Below, piece by piece: positions 29,127-42,558 of a stretch of DNA of 64,000 nt. The position numbers and the translations under genes were made by a program. The stretch is from a virus (taxonomy: Duplodnaviria > Heunggongvirae > Uroviricota > Caudoviricetes). The stretch's first letter is position 1. Every line of letters starts with the position of its first letter. The notes beneath the pieces are model-generated. The model saw nothing but the letters and a program-made list of their open reading frames with translations. It did no database searches and was not told the origin of the DNA. Location: IMG/VR virus record IMGVR_UViG_3300045988_150638. One strand, given 5' to 3'.

Positions 29127-30611
29127 TTATTCATTAAGCCATGCCAGAGCTTCATCAACCTGCGCTTCGTCTTCGACGCTAAGCACTTCATCTTGGGGAA
29201 CATAGTTCGCCAACATAGCGAAACAATATGTATCCCAATGGTCCGGTGAGTGCAGGTTGAGTTTTTTCTTCATATCTTCCTTTGACATCACCTTCCATTG
29301 ACCTGCGGAATTTATCCCTACCGGTATCTTTGATGCTTCCTCTATAGTCGCAGCCCCCTTATCAAGCCTCATACGCCCTGATTTTACAGCTTCTGCCGCC
29401 TGAATATTCGCGAAAGCGCGCATATCGAAATAAAGGCTTTTATCTTCACGGCTGTGCATCTTTTTACCCCAGCGGATACGCTGGACGGTAATGCCATAGC
29501 GTTCGTACATTAGATCAGCCGTCGATTTCCCCAAGCCATCGCCATCAATAGCTATGGTTATGTTCGGGAACCGTTCTGGGTTACATTCTGCGAAAATCTT
29601 GGCGGCTAACTGCGTTTCTGTAACGTCTGTGTATTCCAGCATACGATAGTTGATTACACGGCGTTTATTTCGCTGGCCGGACACCATCATGATATTAATA
29701 ACGGACTTATCTCGTCCTGTGCCACCAGCAACGTCAACACATGCAACCCAGCCCCATCCTTTGGCAATCTTGACCTTTCGCCGCGTCGCCCGCTCAACCT
29801 CATCACGACCAAGAAGAAAGCCATCTTGAGATTTGGGAAATTCACCACGTACTTTGATCATGTACATGGGGTTATCACGACCGCCATACTCTGCAAGTTT
29901 TGCTCGTATAAATTTTGCATCTACAAGCGGAGATTCTTCACTATTCAGTATTATCGCAGTAAACAATCCATCAGGATTTCCCGGGCGAATAGCTAGTCTG
30001 TGGTGTGAATCGTAGAAATAGCCTGAAGGTCGCGTAGGCTGGGAAAGAAGCAGAATACGGTTATCCTTACCGGTCAGCGCACCTGTTATCACACTGAATG
30101 CTTTATCACTCACACCCGACGCTTCGTCGATGATATACAAGAGATGATCGGCGTGTTCACCAGCCAACGCCTCCTCATTTCCGGGGCGACAGGACTTTAT
30201 CAATATTGTCCAAACACCCTTGCCAGTCACCTCAAAAAAAGACGTTTCTGTAAGAATGAAATACTTCGACAACCACGGGAATCTGCTAACAGCAGTAGCC
30301 CAATTGCTCTTTATGTATTTGAAAATACCATCAAGGACTTGCTGTCTTTTGTTAGCGACCAGAATGACGCGAGCGCCGGGGAAAAACATGATGAAGAGTA
30401 TTGCAATGATACTCGTCATATCCGATTTACCAGTACCATGGCCGGAGGTCACACTTGTCCAACTGCCGTCCTGCTGCGTGGACTCAATGATCTCATCCTG
30501 CTGCCAGGTTGGTGTCTTCCCAAACAACACATCAGCGGCCGCAATCCAGTCATAACGATATAGCGCCACCAGCTCGCGCCAACGTGGGTCCGTTACGCAA
30601 CTTCTGGCCAT
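29127..30611 (-). CDS. pacB: PacB terminase large subunit
   Basis: 494 aa; Walker A-like TSGHGTGKS; follows pacA with overlapping start/stop. Confidence 0.85.
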
Positions 30612-31804
30612 TAATCATCATCCCCGTACAGTTTGCGGGTAACTTCTTCGTCTTCCTCCTCGTCTTCGTCCAGATCCTGTTCAAGCCATGCTTCGTTTGA
30701 TATGCCTTCCGCATCGACATCACCATAACCACCCGTATCGACGATATCGGCAATTTCTTCTCTACGATGCTCAATCCACAATGCCGCATCAGCGCGGCGG
30801 CTGGCGGCCCGTTCTCGCGCGATTTTATCCAGATCTTCAAGTGATGGAGCGCCAGATGCTGTTTGGTTTTCCTCATCATCGGTATTGGTCTTAGGAGCAC
30901 GCAGATCGGCTTTGATTTGCTCCAGCATCAGGGGCGGCACTTTTCCTCCATGCGCCTCGATGAATTCAGCCGCTTCCAGCACTGACCAGTTATTTTCACG
31001 CTTTCGTTCGTATGCCAGCTTAACAATGCCAGCTTGCCCCATAGATAAAGCGTGCTTTTCCGCCTCCCGGCTTTCTTTTCGATAGTTATTCCGGATGCTG
31101 TAAATGGTGTTGATCAGGCTGCTTATCTGCGCGGAACAGCTGTTTAGCATGCTCGCGATACGGTATTCAGGCGGAGTACCTTCATCATCGTCTTTTTGCT
31201 GATCGCGCATTTCCTGCACCAGGCGAATACACGTATCCCTGGCGTTCTCCAGCATAAGGAGATGAGAAAGAGACTTTTCCAGAAGAGTGGTTTCCAGAAC
31301 ATCGGCCCCGGACCGACGCAACATAGCGCGCGCGGCCTTCCGCGCTTCAACGTTATCTATCAGGTAATCGCCAGCTTCGAATTCAAAGCGTTCACCATCA
31401 TCATCCAGGGTGTCGCGTTCCAGGCGATCACGTAAGGTCCGGTGGGCGCGGGTGATCACGTCATGATCATCTGAACGATCATTTATGCGCTTATTTTGGC
31501 GCTTCGCATTCTCGACTGCGGCACTGACAACGGCATTAACTCTTTGTTTTTCCGCTGTTTCAGCCGCAATGTGATCACCTGCATGTTGATCATTAGAGTG
31601 ATCAATGATCATGCTTTTTAGAGGCTTCCTGACTGGCTTATTTGGCTTGCGGCTGTCCGCTGTCCTGGTGTCTTCTTTGAAGGCACGGAGATAACGACGT
31701 GCGGTATTAGGGTTAAGATTAAACTCGGCGGCATACTGTGCGATGGTGTAACCACCATCTCGCGCCAGGCGAGCAAAATTCTTCTTGTGATCGTCCCAGG
31801 TCAC
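30611..31804 (-). CDS. pacA: PacA terminase small subunit (contains pac)
   Basis: 397 aa; the pac hexamer cluster lies inside its 5' part. Confidence 0.85.
31453..31611. other. pac packaging site
   Basis: seven hexamers of the TGATCA/CGATCA (Dam GATC) type in two groups (31453-31481 and 31572-31611), as described for P1 pac. Confidence 0.8.
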
Positions 31805-31889
31805 TTATGCTTCCTTTCGTAAAAACTCTTTTTGACGCGAGGGTAACGAAAGTCACATGTCAAAAGGCCCGGAACGGGCAAGCAATCAA

Positions 31890-32342
31890 TCAGATACGTG
31901 CGGATGTGGCATTACCGTAATGACGGTGCTGACGGGCTACCTTATTGAAAAGTTGACGCGCCATTACCCAAGGCTGGTGTTCCCGGCGTTCCTTTTCGTC
32001 CTGCGTCATATAGAGTTCGTTCTGGAGTTTTTCATCAAACCGGCGCGGCGCGCGGCTGCGGCGAAAGAATTCAGGATTCAGAGAGTGGATCTGAAATCTA
32101 CGTGGGCGTGTACTGTCATCAATCAAAACAGACGAATACTTAGACACAGCGATAGCCTTTAAGCGCAGATAAACATCGCGCTTATCGACATCCAGATGCG
32201 GGTATTCCTTTTCAAGAATTGCTGCGAGTTCTTTCGCTGATAGAAGAGATTTAGTGCGGATCATGTAATCCGCAATCTCGTACGATGTTATTCGTGAGTG
32301 ATTTATTTCCATGAAGTGGCGTCCCTGCCAGTTAAGTAACAT
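31890..32342 (-). CDS. lpa: Lpa late promoter activator
   Basis: 150 aa ORF downstream of a C1 operator and upstream of pacA, as in P1; start may be the internal MEINHS. Confidence 0.55.
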   Translation of the reverse strand: MLLNWQGRHFMEINHSRITSYEIADYMIRTKSLLSAKELAAILEKEYPHLDVDKRDVYLRLKAIAVSKYSSVLIDDSTRPRRFQIHSLNPEFFRRSRAPRRFDEKLQNELYMTQDEKERREHQPWVMARQLFNKVARQHRHYGNATSARI

Positions 32343-32412
32343 CCTGTCACCTACTGATTAGCCCATGTCAACTAATCAACGTGGAATATAATACCCTCGA
32401 TTAAATAAATAG

Positions 32413-32429
32413 CAATACATTAGAGCAAT
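32413..32429 (-). promoter_or_regulatory. C1 operator upstream of lpa
   Basis: minus strand ATTGCTCTAATGTATTG. Confidence 0.6.
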
Positions 32430-32430
32430 T

Positions 32431-33474
32431 TTATCTAACACTCGACGAATGACTTGTGATAACGCCCACTCCAAGCGCGTAATCAAAGAACAATCGTTGA
32501 TGCATCGCCAACCTACCGTGCGTCTTCTCCCAATTATCGCGGTCACGCTCAATATCACGCTGGCATGACTGGCACAGAGGAATTGCGTAAATGTCATGCG
32601 CGCATAATCGACTATGACGAACGATATAAGGCGTAATGTGAGCGCCAGCTCCCGCAGCTCCACACCCACAGCACGGACGGGAAGCAACAAAGTCCATGTA
32701 CTCAGGTAATTTTAGCGATCGCAGTTTTGGTATTTTGAAATGCGCCATGCCAGGGTCGGAGTCAACATCCACAGGGCATACTTTTGCACGCATCGGCGCG
32801 GCGCGTTCTTCCATCATCTGAACATATGCTGTAGCGCGATCGTCATACGGGCGAATATCCGCCTCTTTCAGAGGTCCGCTATCCTGCGGAGTAGCCTTCA
32901 TCTTATTTATTGATATGCGGCAGACTTCTTCCGGCATCAGGTGCATCATGTTGCGCATGAAAGCCCACCAGCACAGCTCCTGAATACTTAAATCATGGCT
33001 ATTTGAAAGGCCCATTTCCTGACGGGCGACATCCAGTATCCAGTTAACGCGATTATTGTGCAGCGTTTCTTTCAGCTCATTAAAACCACGCATCCGGTAA
33101 TGGTTATCGTGATGCCAGCACAACAACACCGCGCTATTGTCTCGTTCTGCGTGGACAATATGGTTGTCACACCAGCTACGATCTGTGGCCTGGCATTGCC
33201 CCTCTTTCCTGCGCAACCACGCCACCAGCGAGTCAATTCCACCAATACGGCGAAACAGTTCATCGCTGTTAAAAAACGGCTGCAACGCCTCATTTGTTGC
33301 CATGGTTTGCTCGGTAACAACGAGGCCGTCTTCCATGTGCTCGATTAACTCACGCGGCACCGGCTCCATAATAAATTTACGGCCAGCCTCCACCAGCTTT
33401 CTGACCTCCTGATCCACTTTGAACGTGGCGAGGCCAAGCTCTTTCTGTACAAAGGGAGTAATTACGGCTTTCAC
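32431..33474 (-). CDS. pdcB: PdcB (post-doc protein)
   Basis: 347 aa; Cys-rich segment; position downstream of doc/pdcA. Confidence 0.45.
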
Positions 33475-33501
33475 ATCACACCTTTCATCACTGATTGGGC
33501 T

Positions 33502-33681
33502 TTATCTGCTGCCCGGCATTCTCTGTTTAAGCGCAACCATTTCCTGACGGCATAACACAGCAATAGCGGTCCTGACTCCAATTTGCTTACCAACCAGGTA
33601 TTGCTTTACCTTGCGGCGACTCACGCCATCAAGAAGCATCTTTAACGCTTCACGGGACAATTTGTTGTATTTGCGTGCCAT
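33502..33681 (-). CDS. pdcA: PdcA
   Basis: 59 aa from the ATG at 33681 (GGAG SD); immediately downstream of doc. Confidence 0.35.
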   Translation of the reverse strand: MARKYNKLSREALKMLLDGVSRRKVKQYLVGKQIGVRTAIAVLCRQEMVALKQRMPGSR

Positions 33682-33685
33682 TAAT

Positions 33686-34066
33686 CTACTCCGCAGAACC
33701 ATACAATCTACGTAACGTGTCGGCGACAGAAGATACAGATATCTCGCCAGTCGCAGCGCCTACAGTAAGGTCTGCCAGTTCAGGTGAATCAAATACCTGC
33801 ACCCCGTTACGGCGTAGAAATAACAGCGCACTGTTTAGCGCGGTACGCTTATTGGCATCATTGAATATATGCCCTCTCGCTGTAGCCACCAGGTAGGTGG
33901 CGGAGACTTCGAAAAGGTCGGTGATCTCTTCGTAGGCAACTCTGGCCTGAACTCTCCCGATAATAGCCTCTGCCCTACCCGGATCTGACATTCCCGGCAG
34001 GCCGCCGTAGCGGTTTATATTCGCATCATGAAGCGCAATAAGTTCTTCCGGTGATATATGCCTCAT
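33686..34066 (-). CDS. doc: Doc toxin (death on curing)
   Basis: 126 aa, Fic-fold Doc as in P1; follows phd. Confidence 0.9.
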
Positions 34067-34287
34067 TATCGGTTAACCAGTTCCTTGTTGGTGGAGTCCA
34101 GGGTGTCAAACAGGGATGCAAATTCAGCATCCAGCGCCGCTTTTTTGTAGGCTTCGAAAGTAGCCTTGCTGACAATTACTGCTGGCTCACGGCCTCTGCG
34201 GGTGATTTCAACCTCTTCCCCGGCTTCAACATTGTTGAGCACTTCAGAAAGGTTGCCGCGCGCGGTACGGAAGTTAATGGATTGCAT
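34066..34287 (-). CDS. phd: Phd antitoxin
   Basis: 73 aa from [40 protein letters not shown] (ORF extends to 34293). Confidence 0.9.
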
Positions 34288-34359
34288 AAACACCTCGTGT
34301 ACTCGTTATGTGTACACAATTATAAACTTCACAGGCATAAAGCACCAGCACTTTGCAGC

Positions 34360-34749
34360 TTAAATAACCGGACAATCATCAAACTCCCCACTCCGGGCAT
34401 CATTGATGACATGAGTGATCACACCAAAAACAGCATTACTACCCGTGTAACCATCGTCATCTACTGGTAACGCCTCTTTCTTCCCGGTGCTTAAATCCTC
34501 CAGGTGCTGGCGCGGATACTTTCGGTATCTCTTTATGCGATATTCACCCTCCATAGCGCACACAAGCAGAGAACCATCAACCGGAGTAAGCGAGGAATCA
34601 ACCACCAGCAAAGCACCCTGCAATATTCCCTCACGGTGATGGCTATCAGCTGCCCGCATGAAGTAGGTCGCTGAAGGATGTCTAATTATCTGCTGATCAA
34701 GAGAAATTCGGCTTTCAACATAATCCGCCGCAGGAGAAGGGAAGCCCAT
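34360..34749 (-). CDS. humD: HumD (UmuD' homolog)
   Basis: 129 aa with a LexA/UmuD-type peptidase core; LexA box upstream. Confidence 0.85.
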   Translation of the reverse strand: MGFPSPAADYVESRISLDQQIIRHPSATYFMRAADSHHREGILQGALLVVDSSLTPVDGSLLVCAMEGEYRIKRYRKYPRQHLEDLSTGKKEALPVDDDGYTGSNAVFGVITHVINDARSGEFDDCPVI

Positions 34750-34767
34750 AGCGTTTTACCTCAATGA

Positions 34768-34787
34768 TACTGTTTATTCATACAGTA
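34768..34787. promoter_or_regulatory. LexA (SOS) box upstream of humD
   Basis: TACTGTTTATTCATACAGTA (CTGT-N8-ACAG) about 20 bp upstream of the humD start. Confidence 0.75.
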
Positions 34788-34872
34788 TACATTGAAAAGG
34801 CATAGTTTGTGAAAGCGGGGTTTGTAGGCGCGCCACGCTGGGGGCTAATCACATTTCTCCCCCATCTTGCCG

Positions 34873-35145
34873 TTATTTTTTTGGTGCATCCTCGTTCTGA
34901 TACACCGGATCGCTCCCTTTTGGCAACCGGAGGCTTAACTGCCGATAGTGCCGTAACCGTTCCATGAAATAGGTGCGCAGATTCTCTGGTTGCTCGCGGG
35001 CTACCTGTTCAGCTATGACAGGTATGTTCAATCGCTCTTTGTACGCCACACCGCTGGCAGCCAGATCAACGTTAACCTTATCCCGTTCTTCCTGACTTTT
35101 AGCTGCAATATTCCAATCGTGCATATCAAATCCCATCCAGAACAA
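34873..35145 (-). CDS. hot: Hot (homolog of DNA pol III theta)
   Basis: similar to E. coli HolE across [36 protein letters not shown]; true start probably an internal Met. Confidence 0.7.
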
Positions 35146-35573
35146 TTGCGTAACGACTATTATTTAACCAGCAAAGTAACTTTTAATTTTTTTTCTTTTC
35201 CCATTGATTTTTGTGCACAGCTTATCTGCCTTGCCGTGCGCAGAATCAACTTTTTTCTTCCTGATTTATCCACAAAGTTATGCACTTGCAAGAGGGCCAT
35301 TTTCTAAATATTGTGATGTTTCACAAATGAAATGAATTTTGATTAATGAAGATAAGGAGAAAATTTGAGATGCAATCATGACGTTAATAGATAGGGTCTG
35401 CATTACAGACCCCATCCGCATCAAGGAATTAGCCGTTCCCTGATGTTGTTCCGAAAACATGTGCCGTAAGCTCACGTTAACGACTTTCTTTCACCGAATC
35501 CAACTATATAGGGGTTGGGTTTCTACGTCAACGTGAGCAAGTGCTCCTTTACATTTGACAAGGAACCACCTTA

Positions 35574-35711
35574 ATGACTGCTTTTTTTCAGTTCCTGAGT
35601 GCATTTTTAGATGCGCCTGTTATTAGCCAGATTCTGGCGATCATCCTCATCATCGTTTTGATTTTGCTTTTAAGGTCAGTAAAAAATGGAATTATGCACT
35701 GGCTTACTTAA
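35574..35711 (+). CDS. small hydrophobic peptide (45 aa)
   Basis: MTAFFQFLSAFLDAPVISQILAIILIIVLILLLRSVKNGIMHWLT; single TM segment; weak SD. Confidence 0.25.
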   Translation: MTAFFQFLSAFLDAPVISQILAIILIIVLILLLRSVKNGIMHWLT

Positions 35712-35785
35712 TGTTCAGTGAAACATTAAAATCTCCTTGATGTGGAAACAATCATTTTCTGTATGTGCTGGTGGGTACCTGTAGT

Positions 35786-36148
35786 TCAGCTTTCGTTGGC
35801 ATTTAACTTCGTCTTTGCTTTCTCCACCAGCAACTTCCAGATGCCTATTTCATTAGCAGCCGCCTTGATGGCGGCATAAAAAGCATCTTGCTGATCGTAA
35901 CGCTGAATCTGTTTTTTCAGTTTTGCCTCCACCAATTTAATTTCATTACGTGCTTTCTGAAGCCGCAGCGCCGCCCGGTTACGTCTGTTCTTGTATAGCG
36001 CGTTAATCTCTGATAATTGCTTTAATTTACCAGCCTGACTGCGGATTATCGCCTCTCTGACTTCTGCCGTGCGTCTCATCTGATCTCTTAAGAGTTCACC
36101 GTTTTCGATAATTCTTTCAAGGTGTTTGATGTGATCTGCAACTCTCAT
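35786..36148 (-). CDS. hypothetical coiled-coil protein
   Basis: 120 aa; last gene of a long minus-strand early operon. Confidence 0.4.
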   Translation of the reverse strand: MRVADHIKHLERIIENGELLRDQMRRTAEVREAIIRSQAGKLKQLSEINALYKNRRNRAALRLQKARNEIKLVEAKLKKQIQRYDQQDAFYAAIKAAANEIGIWKLLVEKAKTKLNANES

Positions 36149-37077
36149 ACTTCACCCTCGCTTGTATCGCCAGCATCCACCAGCGGCAATAAAGCCCTGG
36201 CCATCTTATGAACCAATAGTGCATCAATAATGCCAAGCGTATGCCCCGGCTTAATGTTTAATGCCGCCTCAAGGTGACACCTTTCCAGGCCACTTTTCTC
36301 GGCTTGTTTATGATGATCTGGTGTAATAACGTCGCCCAAAACACGGCTAATTCTTTCTCGTAATTGCTGGGTGCCAGCACACTTGATCGCTGTATCGTGG
36401 AGACGGTTAACCAGTTCGCGATAAACATGCGGCTTAATTCGGATACGTTCACCGGTGACGCCCTTTCCTGGTGCTGGCACCGAACTATCCGGAATGTCCG
36501 GATAGTTGCCAGCCTCGTAAGCTACCCGCAGCCAGTGCATGAATGTTTCAGTGGACACACAACCACAGTCCACATCGATTTTCCCGCGTTGCTGTTCCAG
36601 CCATTGCCCAAAATCCAACCTGTAAGTCTTACTTTCAAGTTCATCACCATTGAACTCGACTTTCTGCGACGCTATGAGAGCTGATTCGTATTGTTCGCGA
36701 GTGACAACTGACTGGTATTCATCGCTATCAAGGTCACCAATTGGAAGCTCAATCTCACAACAAAAATTGCGCCCAAAGAAAGTGTCTTTTTTGTGGTCTG
36801 AGCCAAAAGCAAAAGTCGCGCATGGTGCCATTAAATTGACACTGGGTAGGTAACAATAACTCATTCCATCAGGCCACCCGCCGCACTTAGGCAGCTCCTT
36901 CACTAACAAGTCGATAAGCTTCATTTTTTTATCATCTTTGCAAGCCGCCAAAGCCATTTGGGCAAGTGCCAATACTTCATCTGCCGTATATCCAGCACCG
37001 TGACCATACATTTCGATACGGGAAATAATCTCTGATATACGCTCTTCAGTGATTCTGGTCATTTCTTTTTGCGCCAT
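36145..37077 (-). CDS. hypothetical protein
   Basis: 310 aa; overlapping start/stop with neighbours. Confidence 0.4.
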   Translation of the reverse strand: MAQKEMTRITEERISEIISRIEMYGHGAGYTADEVLALAQMALAACKDDKKMKLIDLLVKELPKCGGWPDGMSYCYLPSVNLMAPCATFAFGSDHKKDTFFGRNFCCEIELPIGDLDSDEYQSVVTREQYESALIASQKVEFNGDELESKTYRLDFGQWLEQQRGKIDVDCGCVSTETFMHWLRVAYEAGNYPDIPDSSVPAPGKGVTGERIRIKPHVYRELVNRLHDTAIKCAGTQQLRERISRVLGDVITPDHHKQAEKSGLERCHLEAALNIKPGHTLGIIDALLVHKMARALLPLVDAGDTSEGEV

Positions 37078-37433
37078 TTCTTTTCACATTCCTTAGTCCA
37101 TTTTTCAATGTTCATTTTGGCAATATCAGTCATTCCATCACCTAAGAAATACTTTCTCCGGTACGTCTTGCACTTAAACCACACTACAACAGCCACCAGC
37201 CAGAAAATAAAAGGCCATACAGCAATACCAACTCCAGCCGCGATAAAGCCCAATAGCCATAAATGAAGCTCTCCAACTTCTGTTTGCGGCAATATTCTTA
37301 AAGAATTAAGCAGCAGACTGAAGGAATAGTCGTATGCATTGGCGGTATAAGACATGCAATCCATATAATTAAAGTCATAGCCTGCGGCTGCCGCCCATAA
37401 TGGGCGGTCAAGAAAATGTTTTAGTGTCATCAT
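37059..37433 (-). CDS. hypothetical membrane protein
   Basis: 124 aa with hydrophobic segments. Confidence 0.35.
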   Translation of the reverse strand: MMTLKHFLDRPLWAAAAGYDFNYMDCMSYTANAYDYSFSLLLNSLRILPQTEVGELHLWLLGFIAAGVGIAVWPFIFWLVAVVVWFKCKTYRRKYFLGDGMTDIAKMNIEKWTKECEKKWRKKK

Positions 37434-37439
37434 ATAAAT

Positions 37440-37829
37440 TTAAGGTTCAGACCAGTTATCTTCAATAGCAATGCTTAATCTTTGTAGCCATTCTGCTAAT
37501 TTCAGCATTGCTTCTCTTTCGCTTAAACCACGCGGGAAATCATCAAGCGCAATTGTTGGCTTGAAGTTCCCAAAATTATCCATTTCAACGGTCAGATTTT
37601 GCTCCAGCACGGTATTCCTTACGCGGCTATTGTGCCGAAGCAAATATACTGAACGTGATTTATTGGTTTTGTGGTCGAGCTGATATTCGGTAAGTATCAT
37701 CTGGCTTTTGCCATGACTATTACCTCTCCACATACCTACCTCACTTAATAAAACAACTCCATGCGTAGTTGATGATTTTTCCCCACGTAATATAAATCTG
37801 CACTCCGGCAGTAAAACCAAAGCCAACAA
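37440..37829 (-). CDS. hypothetical protein
   Basis: 129 aa ORF in operon context. Confidence 0.35.
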   Translation of the reverse strand: MLALVLLPECRFILRGEKSSTTHGVVLLSEVGMWRGNSHGKSQMILTEYQLDHKTNKSRSVYLLRHNSRVRNTVLEQNLTVEMDNFGNFKPTIALDDFPRGLSEREAMLKLAEWLQRLSIAIEDNWSEP

Positions 37830-37911
37830 TTGCTGAAAAAATCAAAGCATTTACTTTTGACATTATAAATTTTCTCTCGGCGTCGTAGGTGATAGCACCA
37901 TAATTGATAAT

Positions 37912-38163
37912 TTAGTGAGTTAGCAGTTCCATTTTTTGGATGATTTCCGCATGAGCATCATCGTTATCAACACTTAAATCGTTTAATGCCTTTCGCACTA
38001 CATCAACTTCTTCTGGTTGGAAGAAGTCATCTCGGTAGTCACCAAATAGAACCGAAACAAGCCTGCCACCAGCAACATCAAGATTGGCGCTAACAGGTGG
38101 CTCTTTGCCATCCTCAAATTCGACTACAAAAGTTATTTTTCCCATCGTTACCACCAGCGACAA
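37912..38163 (-). CDS. hypothetical protein
   Basis: 83 aa ORF in operon context. Confidence 0.3.
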   Translation of the reverse strand: MSLVVTMGKITFVVEFEDGKEPPVSANLDVAGGRLVSVLFGDYRDDFFQPEEVDVVRKALNDLSVDNDDAHAEIIQKMELLTH

Positions 38164-38227
38164 ATTGAATACAAACCCAGTGCTGCCGCCATCACAATTC
38201 CTACCGTTGCGAATGCTTCAGGCCAGC

Positions 38228-38806
38228 TCATTGACCTGCCTCCTGGGAAGGTTCTGGTAGCAGCATCCAGAACAAGGCGTTCCCTAACCAGGATAAAGTG
38301 CCGTCGCTCAACTCCACGTATTCCCCTTGCACCTGTCCTGCCATATACTCACCGTGCTTTGAATAAATTAAAATCCAATCATCTTGAGCGGGCATTCGCT
38401 CACTACAGCTTATCCAACCATCCGGAGTTACCGGAGAGTTGCCATTCACAAGGTCAGCTCGAACATATAGCGTGTCATCATGGTGCTGATTGTGGCTGCA
38501 CCACGTTAATTCGCTTAACTCGCCATTTTCTGGCCATACTCCAGCCGTTTGCAGCCAGATATGGGCTGGCGCATCCTGGCAAGGTGTATTAACTGGAAAC
38601 TTGTAAGTTTGGCTTACAGGTTCTGCACTATCAGCTTCGCGCCGCTTCTGTAGCTCTGCTGCCATCGCTCTCACGACTTCAACTGGTGCCCTTGCAGCAA
38701 ACTCTATGTTGGTGATCAGCTCATTAAGATATTGCTCGCCTGGATACTGTTTCTTATCGGTTATAGTGGTCATATCACTCTCCTTTTCCCTGAAGCATAG
38801 CGGCAC
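38228..38806 (-). CDS. hypothetical protein
   Basis: 192 aa ORF. Confidence 0.4.
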   Translation of the reverse strand: MPLCFREKESDMTTITDKKQYPGEQYLNELITNIEFAARAPVEVVRAMAAELQKRREADSAEPVSQTYKFPVNTPCQDAPAHIWLQTAGVWPENGELSELTWCSHNQHHDDTLYVRADLVNGNSPVTPDGWISCSERMPAQDDWILIYSKHGEYMAGQVQGEYVELSDGTLSWLGNALFWMLLPEPSQEAGQ

Positions 38807-39371
38807 GGCAGGCGTTCCAGCCTCTCACCTCTGCAATAGCGGCAACAGCATCGACCGCGTACATGCTAAGAGGATTAGGCATTGGTTTTTCTTCCGGTAC
38901 TACTGGAACGAGGGGAGCGGCGTAGACCTCAATAATTCCATTATCAATAGGCCATTCTCCATCCTTGAGGTAGTCACTTGTGCCGTCAACTTGCTGTTCT
39001 GCAATGTGGAATGCACCTATTGGTTTTGCTTCCAGCGATGCCAGAGCAATTCGTGCCAGTTCTTCCGCTTCTTCTGCTGGCAGTACAACGTTGCTACCAG
39101 GTCCGTATGTTTCGCGCCACTGCTTGATTGTCAGCAGTCGCTCTTTGGTTATAGTGGTCATGGGTTTTCCATCCGCCATCTCTTCATCGGTTTCCCATAA
39201 AACTCGCGCCTGCCCCTCACAGACTTGAATGACTCCGCCACGACCGCAGGAGTTGCACTTAACGGCATCGTCATCCCACAAGGCGGTTTCATTTCCGCGA
39301 GCTGTTTTGACCGTGTGTGATTTATTCCCGCAGCGGCATTTGTTGAGCCAGTCAATAGTGAAAGTTTTCAT
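38775..39371 (-). CDS. hypothetical Cys-rich protein
   Basis: 198 aa; CxxC pairs near the N-terminus. Confidence 0.4.
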   Translation of the reverse strand: MKTFTIDWLNKCRCGNKSHTVKTARGNETALWDDDAVKCNSCGRGGVIQVCEGQARVLWETDEEMADGKPMTTITKERLLTIKQWRETYGPGSNVVLPAEEAEELARIALASLEAKPIGAFHIAEQQVDGTSDYLKDGEWPIDNGIIEVYAAPLVPVVPEEKPMPNPLSMYAVDAVAAIAEVRGWNACRAAMLQGKGE

Positions 39372-39667
39372 GATGCCTCTCCTTTACCCGCTGCTTTCGC
39401 CTGCTCTTTAGCAAGTCGCTCCGCTTCTCTGAAATCCCAATCCACTCGATGTGCTATATCAATTGCAGAGCGCACGGTTCGCTCAATTAGCGTATCCAGA
39501 TTGTCAATTGTCATTGCCATATCTGGATTGCGAGATAAAATCTCCGCCCTCTGAATCTGCCAGTTGTTGCAGGTTTCAAGTAATGAGTTAGCCATATCAC
39601 TCTCCTTTAGTGCGCAAGTGGTTTTTCCAGCGGTTTTGCGCCGCGCTGGGCTTTTTGCAAAAACCAC
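39368..39667 (-). CDS. hypothetical protein
   Basis: 99 aa ORF. Confidence 0.35.
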   Translation of the reverse strand: MVFAKSPARRKTAGKTTCALKESDMANSLLETCNNWQIQRAEILSRNPDMAMTIDNLDTLIERTVRSAIDIAHRVDWDFREAERLAKEQAKAAGKGEAS

Positions 39668-39792
39668 AATCCATCATCCCGTAATATTTCATCAACCCCA
39701 TCCGTCGGTTGCTGAGTCTCACCCACTGCCAGACGCCAGGAGCGTTTCTACGAACTAACAGAATCTTTGCTTTACGGTTGTTGGTTGCCATA

Positions 39793-40413
39793 TCACTCTC
39801 CTTTGATGCGAATGCCAGCTGCGCTTGCTGATTCTTCATATGCGCGTTTAGCAGCGTTAAGGATTGCTGCCAGTGGCGTATAGCCGCCATCCATTCGGAT
39901 TGTGTTGTGGATGCCAGCCATTGTGTTGCGCAATTTTCTGTGGCTAGCAGACAGTTCTGCAATGCGCTTCTCTGCGGCTTCCAGCTTCTCGCGCATATCG
40001 TCAACGTACTCGACCAGAGAACGGCCAGCAGGAATTTCGCACTCCTCGACCAGTTGGAAGTAGATATCAGCTGCGGCCCGTGTGTTGCTATGCCTAGCGT
40101 CGCCCATCTCACCTTCACGAAGAGCATCGCGTTCGGCGGTAAGATTGGCTATTTTGCTGTCTTTGCCTTCCAGCTCAACGCGAAGCCTCCCTACCGTTAG
40201 CGCAATTTCCTCGTTCTCCTGGTCACGGCGTTTGATGTATTGCTGGTTTCTTTCCAGTTCATCCAACAATGCCAGCGCGATATCTGGCGAAAAGTGCTTC
40301 ATAAAATCGTTAAGCGCATTAATTCGCTGATCGAAAGGCATTACAGGTGCTTCACCAGCAATTTTTGTTTTTTCAGCGATTTCACGAAGCTTTTGATAAT
40401 CAATCTTGCTCAT
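39793..40413 (-). CDS. Ea22/Ead-like modular protein
   Basis: 206 aa; N-terminus MSKIDYQKLREIAEKT shared with two paralogs downstream. Confidence 0.45.
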   Translation of the reverse strand: MSKIDYQKLREIAEKTKIAGEAPVMPFDQRINALNDFMKHFSPDIALALLDELERNQQYIKRRDQENEEIALTVGRLRVELEGKDSKIANLTAERDALREGEMGDARHSNTRAAADIYFQLVEECEIPAGRSLVEYVDDMREKLEAAEKRIAELSASHRKLRNTMAGIHNTIRMDGGYTPLAAILNAAKRAYEESASAAGIRIKGE

Positions 40414-41111
40414 TGGATGACTCCTTTACGAAGCTGTTCGGCGATATCTTCGAGAACGCCATCAGAGAATGAACGGTCAAAATCGCCTTCCGGCGCATTG
40501 GCCATAAACTCAGTAGAGGTAAGAATCATCCGGGCAATATCCGCAGCGTTCTTCGCAGTATCATCAATAAAACCAGCTTTCCAGGCTGCCAACATTCTGT
40601 TCGCCACAAAATAAGCGCCTTCCTTGCGTGCTTCAGTCTTCACTTCAGCTAGAAAAGCATCGGTAGCTGGAGTTTCGCTGTGGTGCAGGGCATCGTTGAT
40701 AATCATTGCAGCAACTCCGGCCTGCCCTGCATCCGTGACCGACACATGCTCAAGAGTTACGGCCATTGCGTGTTTCAGCCCGGCGTTCTCTGCCACCAGC
40801 GCCGCGAGATTAGTCTCAAGCTCTGCAATTCGACACATAGCATCAATATTTGTGTCCTCCAGGCACTTAATTTCACCAAGCAGCTCCAGTGCAACCTTTG
40901 GGTTGAACGCGGCAACATGACGAGCGTTGTTCTCTGCATTTTTCTGTCCATCAAAGCCGGTCCATTTGATAACGTCTTCACATCGTTCATCACCGGGCGT
41001 GTGCACCGCATAAGTACCAGTCTCCGTCGAAATAAATGCGACCCATTCGTCTGGTGTTGCCTTTTCTGCCGCCTCACGCAGTACCTGATAGTCAATTGTC
41101 ATTCTCGCCAT
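40410..41111 (-). CDS. Ea22/Ead-like modular protein
   Basis: 233 aa; shares the N-terminal module and the ETPATDAFLAEV / AEQLRKG segments with the 41740-42513 ORF. Confidence 0.45.
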   Translation of the reverse strand: MARMTIDYQVLREAAEKATPDEWVAFISTETGTYAVHTPGDERCEDVIKWTGFDGQKNAENNARHVAAFNPKVALELLGEIKCLEDTNIDAMCRIAELETNLAALVAENAGLKHAMAVTLEHVSVTDAGQAGVAAMIINDALHHSETPATDAFLAEVKTEARKEGAYFVANRMLAAWKAGFIDDTAKNAADIARMILTSTEFMANAPEGDFDRSFSDGVLEDIAEQLRKGVIQ

Positions 41112-41743
41112 CCTTCACAGTTGTAATCACTACAGCCTTCAAAATCATATGGGCTGTACTGCCAGGTTATTTTTCCGCAATGCGGACAATTCCAACGCAC
41201 CTTCCCGCTTCGCGACTTCTTTCTTCTGTTCTGCTCTTCCAACCAGTCAGGCATGACCAAACCTGCGCCCTGAACCATTGTTCTGCGGTTAAAGTTATTG
41301 ATATTGAACGTCCGGCGCTTTGCTGAATCAGCAATGGAAAATGGCAACCAAACTATTCCTGGTTCGTTTTTGTTGGCGACGCTAAAGATGGTCGCTTTAC
41401 TGAAGTCATCTGTTGGCAATCCACCGTGTTGAAGCCAGTAAACATCGTTGCCGTTCCAGCTACCTTTTTTGTAGGCCACATACGCAGTGCAATCTGGCTC
41501 AATCAGGTTTTCTGTAGGGATGTACTGGCAATCAACGTGCCACACAGCCATTGCATCCACGCTATCAGCGCAAACAGGCTGATCGATATCTCGACCACAA
41601 TTCCAGGCTTTTTGGGCTTCTTCCAGCGTGTAAACATGAGCGCGATCGATATTAGAACTGTAACCATTGCCGTTATGGCAATGGAATGAAGCGTTATTAC
41701 CCACAGTTTCACGCAAGCACATCATGTAAAAGCGGTTATTCAC
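41099..41743 (-). CDS. hypothetical Cys-rich protein
   Basis: 214 aa; C-terminal CPHCG...C...C zinc-ribbon-like pattern. Confidence 0.4.
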   Translation of the reverse strand: MNNRFYMMCLRETVGNNASFHCHNGNGYSSNIDRAHVYTLEEAQKAWNCGRDIDQPVCADSVDAMAVWHVDCQYIPTENLIEPDCTAYVAYKKGSWNGNDVYWLQHGGLPTDDFSKATIFSVANKNEPGIVWLPFSIADSAKRRTFNINNFNRRTMVQGAGLVMPDWLEEQNRRKKSRSGKVRWNCPHCGKITWQYSPYDFEGCSDYNCEGWRE

Positions 41744-42513
41744 TGGCTGCCTCCTTTGCGAAGCTGGGCAGCAAAGTCAACTAACCACTCAGTCATTTCA
41801 ACCTTCCCTACCAGGTCTGAACCAGGGTGCATACAGCAATCACTCTGCGCCGCTTTGAAATCCTTACACTCATATTCTTGGGCCACCAGATTTTTTGCAG
41901 CTTCTATAGCAGCATCCACCCCCTGCGCCCGGACTTCAGCCAGGAAAGCGTCGGTGGCTGGGGTTTCGATATTAGGCAGAAGCGCATAATCGCAAATCGT
42001 ATCGATCGCAGGATCACAACAGTCATCCTCGTTGCGTGGTCGTTCGCCAACCTTCGTTGACGATTGCATGATGATTCCCCAGCAAATACTATCGACCTCT
42101 TCGCTCCATCCATCGCAAGCATCACCGCGATAGTCGTCGATTGCAGCCTCAGCCGATTCGATAGCTTCCTCAGCAGTTTTGTGCCATTCGAAATTATGCT
42201 CAGAGCCATATGAGAAATATGAATGTCCCGCCTTCAGCCCCGCATTCTCAGCAGCCAGCGCCGCGCACTTGGCCTCAAGAGCGGCAACCACTTCCTGATG
42301 GTCTTTGTACTTAACGTATGAGCCGGAGATGTCATCACCTTCGGTGTTTAGCCATGCGTCATTGCAATTCACTGCGTAGGTTCTGATGCTCATGCTGATG
42401 CTCTCCCGCCTCTGACAGACGCCAGGCCAGTCAATAAAGTATCCGCAATGCCTACCCTCAGACGTGCGCGCAGGATAAATGCCGTTATGACCGGCAAAAT
42501 ATATGCTACCCAT
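41740..42513 (-). CDS. Ea22/Ead-like protein with a displaced N-terminal module
   Basis: 257 aa; the conserved N-terminal module is in another frame (42390-42572), separated by about 100 bp of extra sequence. Confidence 0.4.
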   Translation of the reverse strand: MGSIYFAGHNGIYPARTSEGRHCGYFIDWPGVCQRRESISMSIRTYAVNCNDAWLNTEGDDISGSYVKYKDHQEVVAALEAKCAALAAENAGLKAGHSYFSYGSEHNFEWHKTAEEAIESAEAAIDDYRGDACDGWSEEVDSICWGIIMQSSTKVGERPRNEDDCCDPAIDTICDYALLPNIETPATDAFLAEVRAQGVDAAIEAAKNLVAQEYECKDFKAAQSDCCMHPGSDLVGKVEMTEWLVDFAAQLRKGGSQ

Positions 42514-42558
42514 TCATCTTGCGTTGCCTGTTCCGCCGCCTCGCGCAGTTCTTGATAG

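Follow-up and report, generated by a model that had tools for sequence, protein, structure and literature searches.

Has a small mobile element or a recombination event interrupted one member of this family of phage accessory genes, or is the break in its reading frame of a simpler kind? The question arises in a stretch of 64,000 nucleotides of Caudoviricetes DNA (IMG/VR record IMGVR_UViG_3300045988_150638; hereafter the window, to which all coordinates refer unless stated), where the N-terminal module of the third of three related genes lies in one reading frame and the remainder of the gene in another. An earlier note on this DNA, made from the letters alone, proposed that roughly 100 bp had been inserted between the two parts, or that a recombination scar separated them. 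The window is that of a P1-like phage-plasmid: positions 30000-50000 match many non-mobilizable E. coli plasmids of about 90-100 kb, the best of them with 98.4% identity over 90% of the query.

A tandem array of Ead/Ea22-like genes

Directly downstream of pmgS and pap lies an array of three Ead/Ea22-like paralogs (Pfam PF13935), all on the minus strand (Table 1). The earlier note had recognized three adjacent ORFs (39793-40413, 40410-41111 and 42390-42572) by the strings with which their products begin, and this observation holds; a six-frame motif scan finds exactly three such N-terminal modules in the window. At the PF13935 gathering cut-off of 27 bits, both intact paralogs, the short N-terminal ORF of the split gene (N-ORF) and the third gene after repair of its frame all score above threshold, and the family is indeed a tandem and modular one in which one member is truly broken by a change of frame. 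When the paralogs are aligned, they share a conserved N-terminus and a common AALxAENAxLK stretch and diverge in their C-terminal modules, and paralog 1, which ends in IKGE, has no beta-strand part in its N-terminal domain. The motifs said to be shared by two of the members are so in part: ETPATDAFLAEV is common to 40410-41111 and 41740-42513, but the C-termini AEQLRKGVIQ and AAQLRKGGSQ are similar and not identical. Neighbouring genes of the array share 4 nt (ATGA at 40410-40413, GTGA at 41740-41743), a gene layout that points to a translationally coupled operon.

Two further minus-strand ORFs accompany the family. One of 214 aa (41099-41743) sits between Ea22-like paralogs, matches phrog_2457 end to end and no Pfam family, and has a cysteine-rich C-terminus (NCPHCGKITW...CSDYNCEGW) that suggests a putative zinc-binding motif. 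Another of 195 aa (42559-43146) lies upstream of the split gene, overlaps the N-ORF by 14 nt, and matches phrog_874, likewise with no Pfam match. At the C-terminal end of paralog 1, the window (39780-39955, about 176 nt) and the related contig L039 (5000-5540 of that contig, about 540 nt) differ in length, which appears from the two sequences to be a module swap or an indel.

Table 1. Coordinates of the Ea22-like genes and of the features around the split in the third gene
Feature	Position	Strand	Description
Paralog 1, intact Ea22-like	39793-40413	-	206 aa, starts MSKIDYQKLREIAEKT; PF13935 68.5 bits
Paralog 2, intact Ea22-like	40410-41111	-	233 aa, starts MARMTIDYQVLREAAEKAT; PF13935 85.5 bits; phrog_368 end to end
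Third Ead/Ea22-like gene, whole	41740-42572	-	carries 1-nt deletion; from repaired translation, Pfam, phrog_368 and comparison with P0025
N-ORF	42390-42572	-	60 aa, GTG start, reads SKINYQELREAAEQATQDEWVAYI
Body ORF, longest form	41740-42513	-	257 aa, other frame; carries ETPATDAFLAEV; C-terminal AAQLRKGGSQ
Body ORF from ATG at junction	41740-42393	-	217 aa, MSIRTYAVNCNDAW...AAQLRKGGSQ
Lesion	42491-42492	-	GG run where in-frame relatives have GGG (DNA alignment); GCCGGGTCAT -> GCCGGTCAT
Segment formerly taken for an insert	42394-42497	-	normal coding, residues about 26-60 of Ea22 N-terminal domain (LPGHNGIYPARTSEGRHCGYFIDWPGVCQRRESIS)
Shine-Dalgarno-like GGGAGAG	42401-42407	-	GGAG core 9 nt upstream of body ATG; putative function
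ATGA stop/start overlap	42390-42393	-	N-ORF TGA 42390-42392, body ATG 42391-42393
Tandem hexamers AGCATC/AGCATG/AGCATC	42385-42402	-	direct repeat; middle unit gives junction ATG

One G missing from a GGG run

The N-ORF and the body ORF lie in different frames, as had been noticed from the sequence alone. Codons 1-27 of the N-ORF encode the genuine Ea22 N-terminus (MSKINYQELREAAEQATQDEWVAYILP), and the other 33 are read in the wrong frame until they end at a TGA; the product matches PF13935 with 35.7 bits at profile positions 1-28 only, and over its whole length it matches phrog_14804 (60 positions; E 1e-41). The body ORF alone gives no match to PF13935. In a DNA alignment, relatives with a continuous frame read TTTTGCCGGGTCATAAC where the window reads TTTTGCCGGTCATAAC, a difference of a single G, so that GCCGGGTC has become GCCGGTC. 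When one G is restored in silico, the result is a gene of 834 nt, in frame from end to end, whose 277-aa product matches PF13935 continuously (63.3 bits, profile positions 1-99), aligns with phrog_368 from end to end, and shares 96% identity along its whole length with an intact public protein of 273 aa (P0025, HFT0960319.1). These comparisons show that, through the loss of one nucleotide from the GGG run, the Ea22 N-terminal domain is cut short behind its first helix motif and is no longer joined to the C-terminal body with its putative coiled coil.

The supposed insert is normal coding sequence of this family. It is present in all 81 homologous viral contigs and encodes LPGHNGIYPARTSEGRHCGYFIDWPG, in frame, in most of them; the N-terminal part that includes the whole segment is 95-97% identical in Punavirus genomes (megablast against phage records). 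The earlier note had named a continuous frame in homologs as one of two observations that would count against an insertion, and such a frame is what the homologs have: the region is one continuous ORF in ON470617 (L001; an annotated CDS of 241 aa), in MH422554 (L002; 197 aa), in 54 other viral contigs, and in the gene for P0025. The peptide that relatives encode here is LPGHNGIYPARTSEGRHCGYFIDWPGVCQGRESI, and the body frame of the window gives the same peptide from GHNG on. Against paralog 2, the repaired protein is collinear (BLASTP, E 4e-14, one gap of 1 residue), with ILPGHNGIYPARTSEGRHCGYFIDWPG paired with I-STETGTYAVHTPGDERCEDVIKWTG or, in the longer form, DEWVAYILPGHNGIYPARTSEGRHCGYFIDWPG with DEWVAFI-STETGTYAVHTPGDERCEDVIKWTG. 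The claim that about 100 bp lie between DEWVAYI and SIRTYAV where the paralog has 5 codons comes from a mis-alignment, in which SIRTYAV of the split gene was set against TGTYAV of paralog 2; the TYAV of the paralog pairs with IYPA, and not with the SIRTYAV downstream. In other family members ...GYFIDWPG is followed by IDGQRNAGANARYIAAIPPKVALALLGEIKRLEDTNIDA, just as paralog 2 goes on with FDGQKNAENNARHVAAFNPKVALELLGEIKCLEDTNIDA, which confirms the collinear alignment. Within the Ea22 N-terminal domain, the segment corresponds to the beta-strand part.

The segment also has none of the marks of a mobile element that were looked for. Its ends had been described as imperfectly inverted, and the best terminal inverted match scores 4 of 30, which 96% of random segments from the window equal or exceed; a repeat search found no inverted repeat pair at the ends. 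No direct repeat brackets 42394-42497 as a target-site duplication would, the only repeats there being internal hexamers and a 14-mer of 79% identity away from the segment ends. A blastn-short search found no second copy in the 64-kb window, and in E. coli genomes the segment occurs at a median of one place per genome and at 2 places at most. An empty site, with DEWVAYI no more than 30 nt from SIRTYAV, was found in none of 2.9 million viral contigs, against 81 contigs with the segment. Without terminal inverted repeats, target duplication, multiple copies or empty sites, a MITE or other small mobile insertion was rejected. The predicted RNA fold of the segment (MFE -32.3, against a mean of -32.75 for shuffled sequences, z 0.13) is not an unusually stable stem-loop, and the segment lies inside a coding region; a REP or BIME element was rejected on both counts. 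An Rfam scan of 41000-44000, at E values up to 10, gave no match over the segment. Two weak matches in that scan lie elsewhere, at 43215-43661, and are at chance level: adapt33_3 (E 1.8) and GcvB (43215-43298, plus strand; 17.2 bits against a gathering cut-off of 42, E 0.98). What had been read as an insertion or a recombination scar is thus the effect of the single G missing at 42491-42492.

In RefSeq, PGAP gives each half its own 'ead/Ea22-like family protein' CDS, with no pseudogene flag. In two RefSeq records with the same lesion (L084, 2565-3113; L085, 2565-3071), the PGAP body CDS begins 46 nt inside the N-ORF, at an ATT codon (window 42433-42435) and not at the junction ATG; this start is probably a homology-driven call.

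Two split alleles, their spread and their origin

The GG allele is not peculiar to the window. A pattern scan of viral contigs that accepted either GG or GGG returned 81 loci, to which L001 and L002 were added; 76 of these 83 carry GGG and 7 carry GG (the window is not counted), and the GG copies follow several slightly different N-termini. In a search of 5426 complete E. coli genomes with allele-specific 34-36-mers, the GG allele was found in 20 (7 on chromosomes, 13 on plasmids) and GGG in 204, the latter at 214 places. A pattern scan of genome contigs, with one genome per species, gave no matches and is uninformative. L039, an independent contig with 99-99.9% identity to window 34781-45057, shares both the GG allele and the 217-aa body; the exact 60-aa product of the N-ORF is found on 304 public contigs, and the exact 217-aa body is called on 24, for example as WP_225394389.1. 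The split allele is thus common among phages and plasmids of E. coli, and hundreds of public records already contain and annotate it. Moreover, GG is linked to a rare AGCATG in place of AACATG, which accompanies 9 of 10 split copies and 1 of 20 in-frame copies (Fisher p 7e-6); such linkage is expected of an inherited haplotype and not of random sequencing error. The GG allele is a heritable one and not a sequencing error peculiar to the window. A phase-variable contingency locus was considered and rejected, since the run is found only as GGG or GG and GG is tied to one haplotype, which indicates one origin and not frequent switching. The N-terminal module is also found in the early regions of chromosomal prophages beside recombination-type genes; in L085, its neighbours are a Rad52/Rad22-family repair protein, ssb and an anti-RecBCD gene.

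A second split allele exists in the same gene. In it a TG dinucleotide is duplicated 45 nt downstream of the GGG run (GCATTGCGG -> GCATTGTGCGG, at the equivalent of window 42443-42450), and it is found in 19 viral contigs (L009, L010, L018, L086 and others) and in 34 complete E. coli genomes at 35 places, its 61-aa product being present on at least 999 contigs. Together the two split alleles occupy 20 + 35 of about 234 places in complete E. coli genomes, or about 23% of the copies, and about 77% are fused. The -1 change of the GG allele and the +2 change of the TG duplication shift translation into the same frame, which in the intact gene has a TAG just upstream of the GGG run and is then open for about 110 nt up to the TGA.

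Other length changes are found close by. The hexamer at the junction is present in one copy in P0025, two in L002, and three in the window and L001, and this variation among homologs (1, 2 or 3 units) is always in frame (ESI-RTY, ESISIRTY, ESI[S/N]MSIRTY). One contig, L026 (IMGVR_UViG_2526164691_000033), has as a singleton a -1 change in another GGG run (GCGGGAG -> GCGGAG, equivalent to window ~42404-42407), on a background without the ATG hexamer, and its ORF ends after 65 aa.

In both split alleles, the first ORF ends on the ATGA overlap: this holds for 10 of 10 GG loci and for 19 of 20 TG-duplication loci, the exception (L040) being a contig that ends before the junction. Since the stop codon of the N-ORF overlaps the ATG of the body, downstream of GGGAGAG, coupled translation of the body is possible, and an N-terminally truncated body of 217 aa may still be made in this way, at least as the arrangement of these signals suggests. 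Every complete body that follows a split allele is open (27 of 27, in at least eight length classes). However, bodies behind the TG-duplication allele are identical in DNA to bodies behind in-frame alleles, from which it follows that the split is recent relative to the divergence of the bodies and that their intactness is uninformative about selection. A comparison of synonymous and nonsynonymous changes found split and in-frame bodies to be identical or 1-3 nt apart, which is too little variation for a test of selection.

How did the split alleles arise and persist? The explanation that we favor begins with a replication slip in a short run of identical bases, by which one G would have been lost at 42491-42492; a slippage origin is suggested by the TG duplication, the L026 loss of a G and the changing copy number of the AGCATC hexamer, all within the same 120 nt. 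From codon 28 onward, about 100 nt of normal coding sequence would then be read out of frame until the TGA, and the resulting 60-aa product would keep only the first helix motif of the N-terminal domain. Once inherited, the allele presumably circulates by module-wise recombination among P1-like plasmids and lambdoid prophages. The third gene of the window shows mosaic structure of its own: the N-terminus shares 95-98% identity with P1-like and lambdoid copies, the middle 79-90% with other phages, and the C-terminus about 98% with lambdoid phages, CUS-3 among them. The loss would be tolerated because the gene appears to be dispensable, lying as it does in an accessory region; a CRISPRi screen found lambda ea22 to be nonessential, along with each P1 gene that it covered between pap and hot (PMC10695390), and for upfM, which lay outside that screen, the paper cites an older deletion survey in which the gene is listed as nonessential. 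The body, with its putative coiled coil and C-terminal module, might still be supplied through the ATGA coupling, without the N-terminal domain. We regard this explanation as a whole, that GGG became GG, that the segment is homologous sequence, that the allele is heritable and that the loss of the gene is tolerated, as very likely to be correct.

A different reading is that the split is a selected gene fission, in which the 60-aa (or 61-aa) ORF and the ATGA-coupled body form a functional two-gene pair, the body being an Ea22 without the beta-strand N-terminal domain, as lambda Ea22 naturally is. Two independent mutations have reached the same frame, both inside the sole stretch of about 110 nt where the shifted frame runs open to the TGA of the ATGA; the split alleles are common, their downstream bodies are all open in spite of their many lengths, the 60-aa product has a PHROG family of its own, and lambda Ea22 is functional despite its truncated N-terminal region (PMC7093339). 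The presence of two split alleles at appreciable frequency, both ending on ATGA, hints at more than a tolerated defect. On the other side, the independent events number only two, the intact bodies prove nothing when the split is so recent, the wrong-frame tail has no independent conservation signal, and most copies are fused. We therefore think selected fission unlikely. If it were true, loss of the N-terminal beta-strand domain, or the small peptide itself, could benefit the phage or its host, a possibility suggested by the spread of both variants across P1-like plasmids and lambdoid prophages.

The remaining explanations fare worse. A sequencing or assembly error confined to the window would be of the commonest kind, a 1-nt change in a G run, but the run is just 3 bases long, and the recurrence of GG in 20 independent complete genomes, in 7 viral contigs and in the near-identical L039, together with its linkage to a rare neighbouring variant, makes such an error very improbable. 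Programmed ribosomal frameshifting would rescue the full-length protein from the GG allele if the ribosome slipped by -1 after the CCG codon, which would recreate exactly L-P-G-H-N-G. Against this, an X_XXY_YYZ heptamer is absent throughout the 183-nt frame of the N-ORF, the downstream structure is not unusually stable, the second split allele is a +2 change at another site that would require a different recoding signal, and the two-frame layout is not conserved when some 77% of copies are single in-frame ORFs; we find this reading hard to credit. A mobile insertion of about 100 bp (MITE- or REP-like) or a recombination scar, which had only the apparent length difference from the TGTYAV alignment to recommend it, is practically dismissed by a segment that is in frame in relatives, homologous to residues of paralog 2, and devoid of inverted or flanking repeats, extra copies in the window, empty sites, an unusual fold or an Rfam match.

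Read in this way, the break is a commonplace frameshift in a modular accessory gene of a known family, and there is no insertion of the kind proposed. The locus should be annotated as one Ead/Ea22-like gene with a 1-nt frameshift, and not as a gene with a mobile insert, and beyond this the finding has little import. That a frameshift product now has a PHROG family to itself (phrog_14804) calls for a little care in the use of protein-family databases, and the two split alleles, which account for roughly a quarter of copies and both end on ATGA, are a minor lead for the function of the Ea22 domain.

Comparison with known systems

With MITE- and REP-type small insertions, the segment at 42394-42497 has only its size class (about 100 bp) in common; it differs from them in the lack of inverted ends, a target duplication, multicopy spread and empty sites, and in being coding sequence that is conserved in frame. 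The resemblance to prophage accessory genes split by slippage consists in the 1-nt loss in a short G run, the nearby TG duplication and the change in hexamer copy number, each of a kind that slippage typically produces, and in the calling of the halves as separate CDSs by PGAP. Two features here need not be shown by an ordinary pseudogene, namely the wide spread on plasmids and chromosomes with several C-terminal modules, and the end on ATGA.

The natural comparison is with Ea22 of lambda and the Stx phages, which favours lysogeny in both (PMC7093339, PMC10834534) and is built in three parts: an N-terminal domain, a coiled coil and a variable C-terminal domain (PMC7093339, PMC10834534). Of the N-terminal domain, Ea22 of Stx phages was described as having a beta-strand part that lambda Ea22 lacks (PMC7093339). 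The genes of the window are alike in their Pfam match, in a helix motif at the N-terminus with a beta-strand segment behind it, as in the description of the Stx-phage protein, in an apparent heptad-like central region, in the highly variable C-terminal module and the mosaic exchange of modules, and in their presumed nonessential accessory status (PMC7093339, PMC10834534, PMC10695390). They differ in number and place: lambda and Stx phages have one copy, in the early region between exo and xis, whereas on the P1-like plasmid three copies stand in tandem after pmgS and pap, and one of the three is frameshifted.
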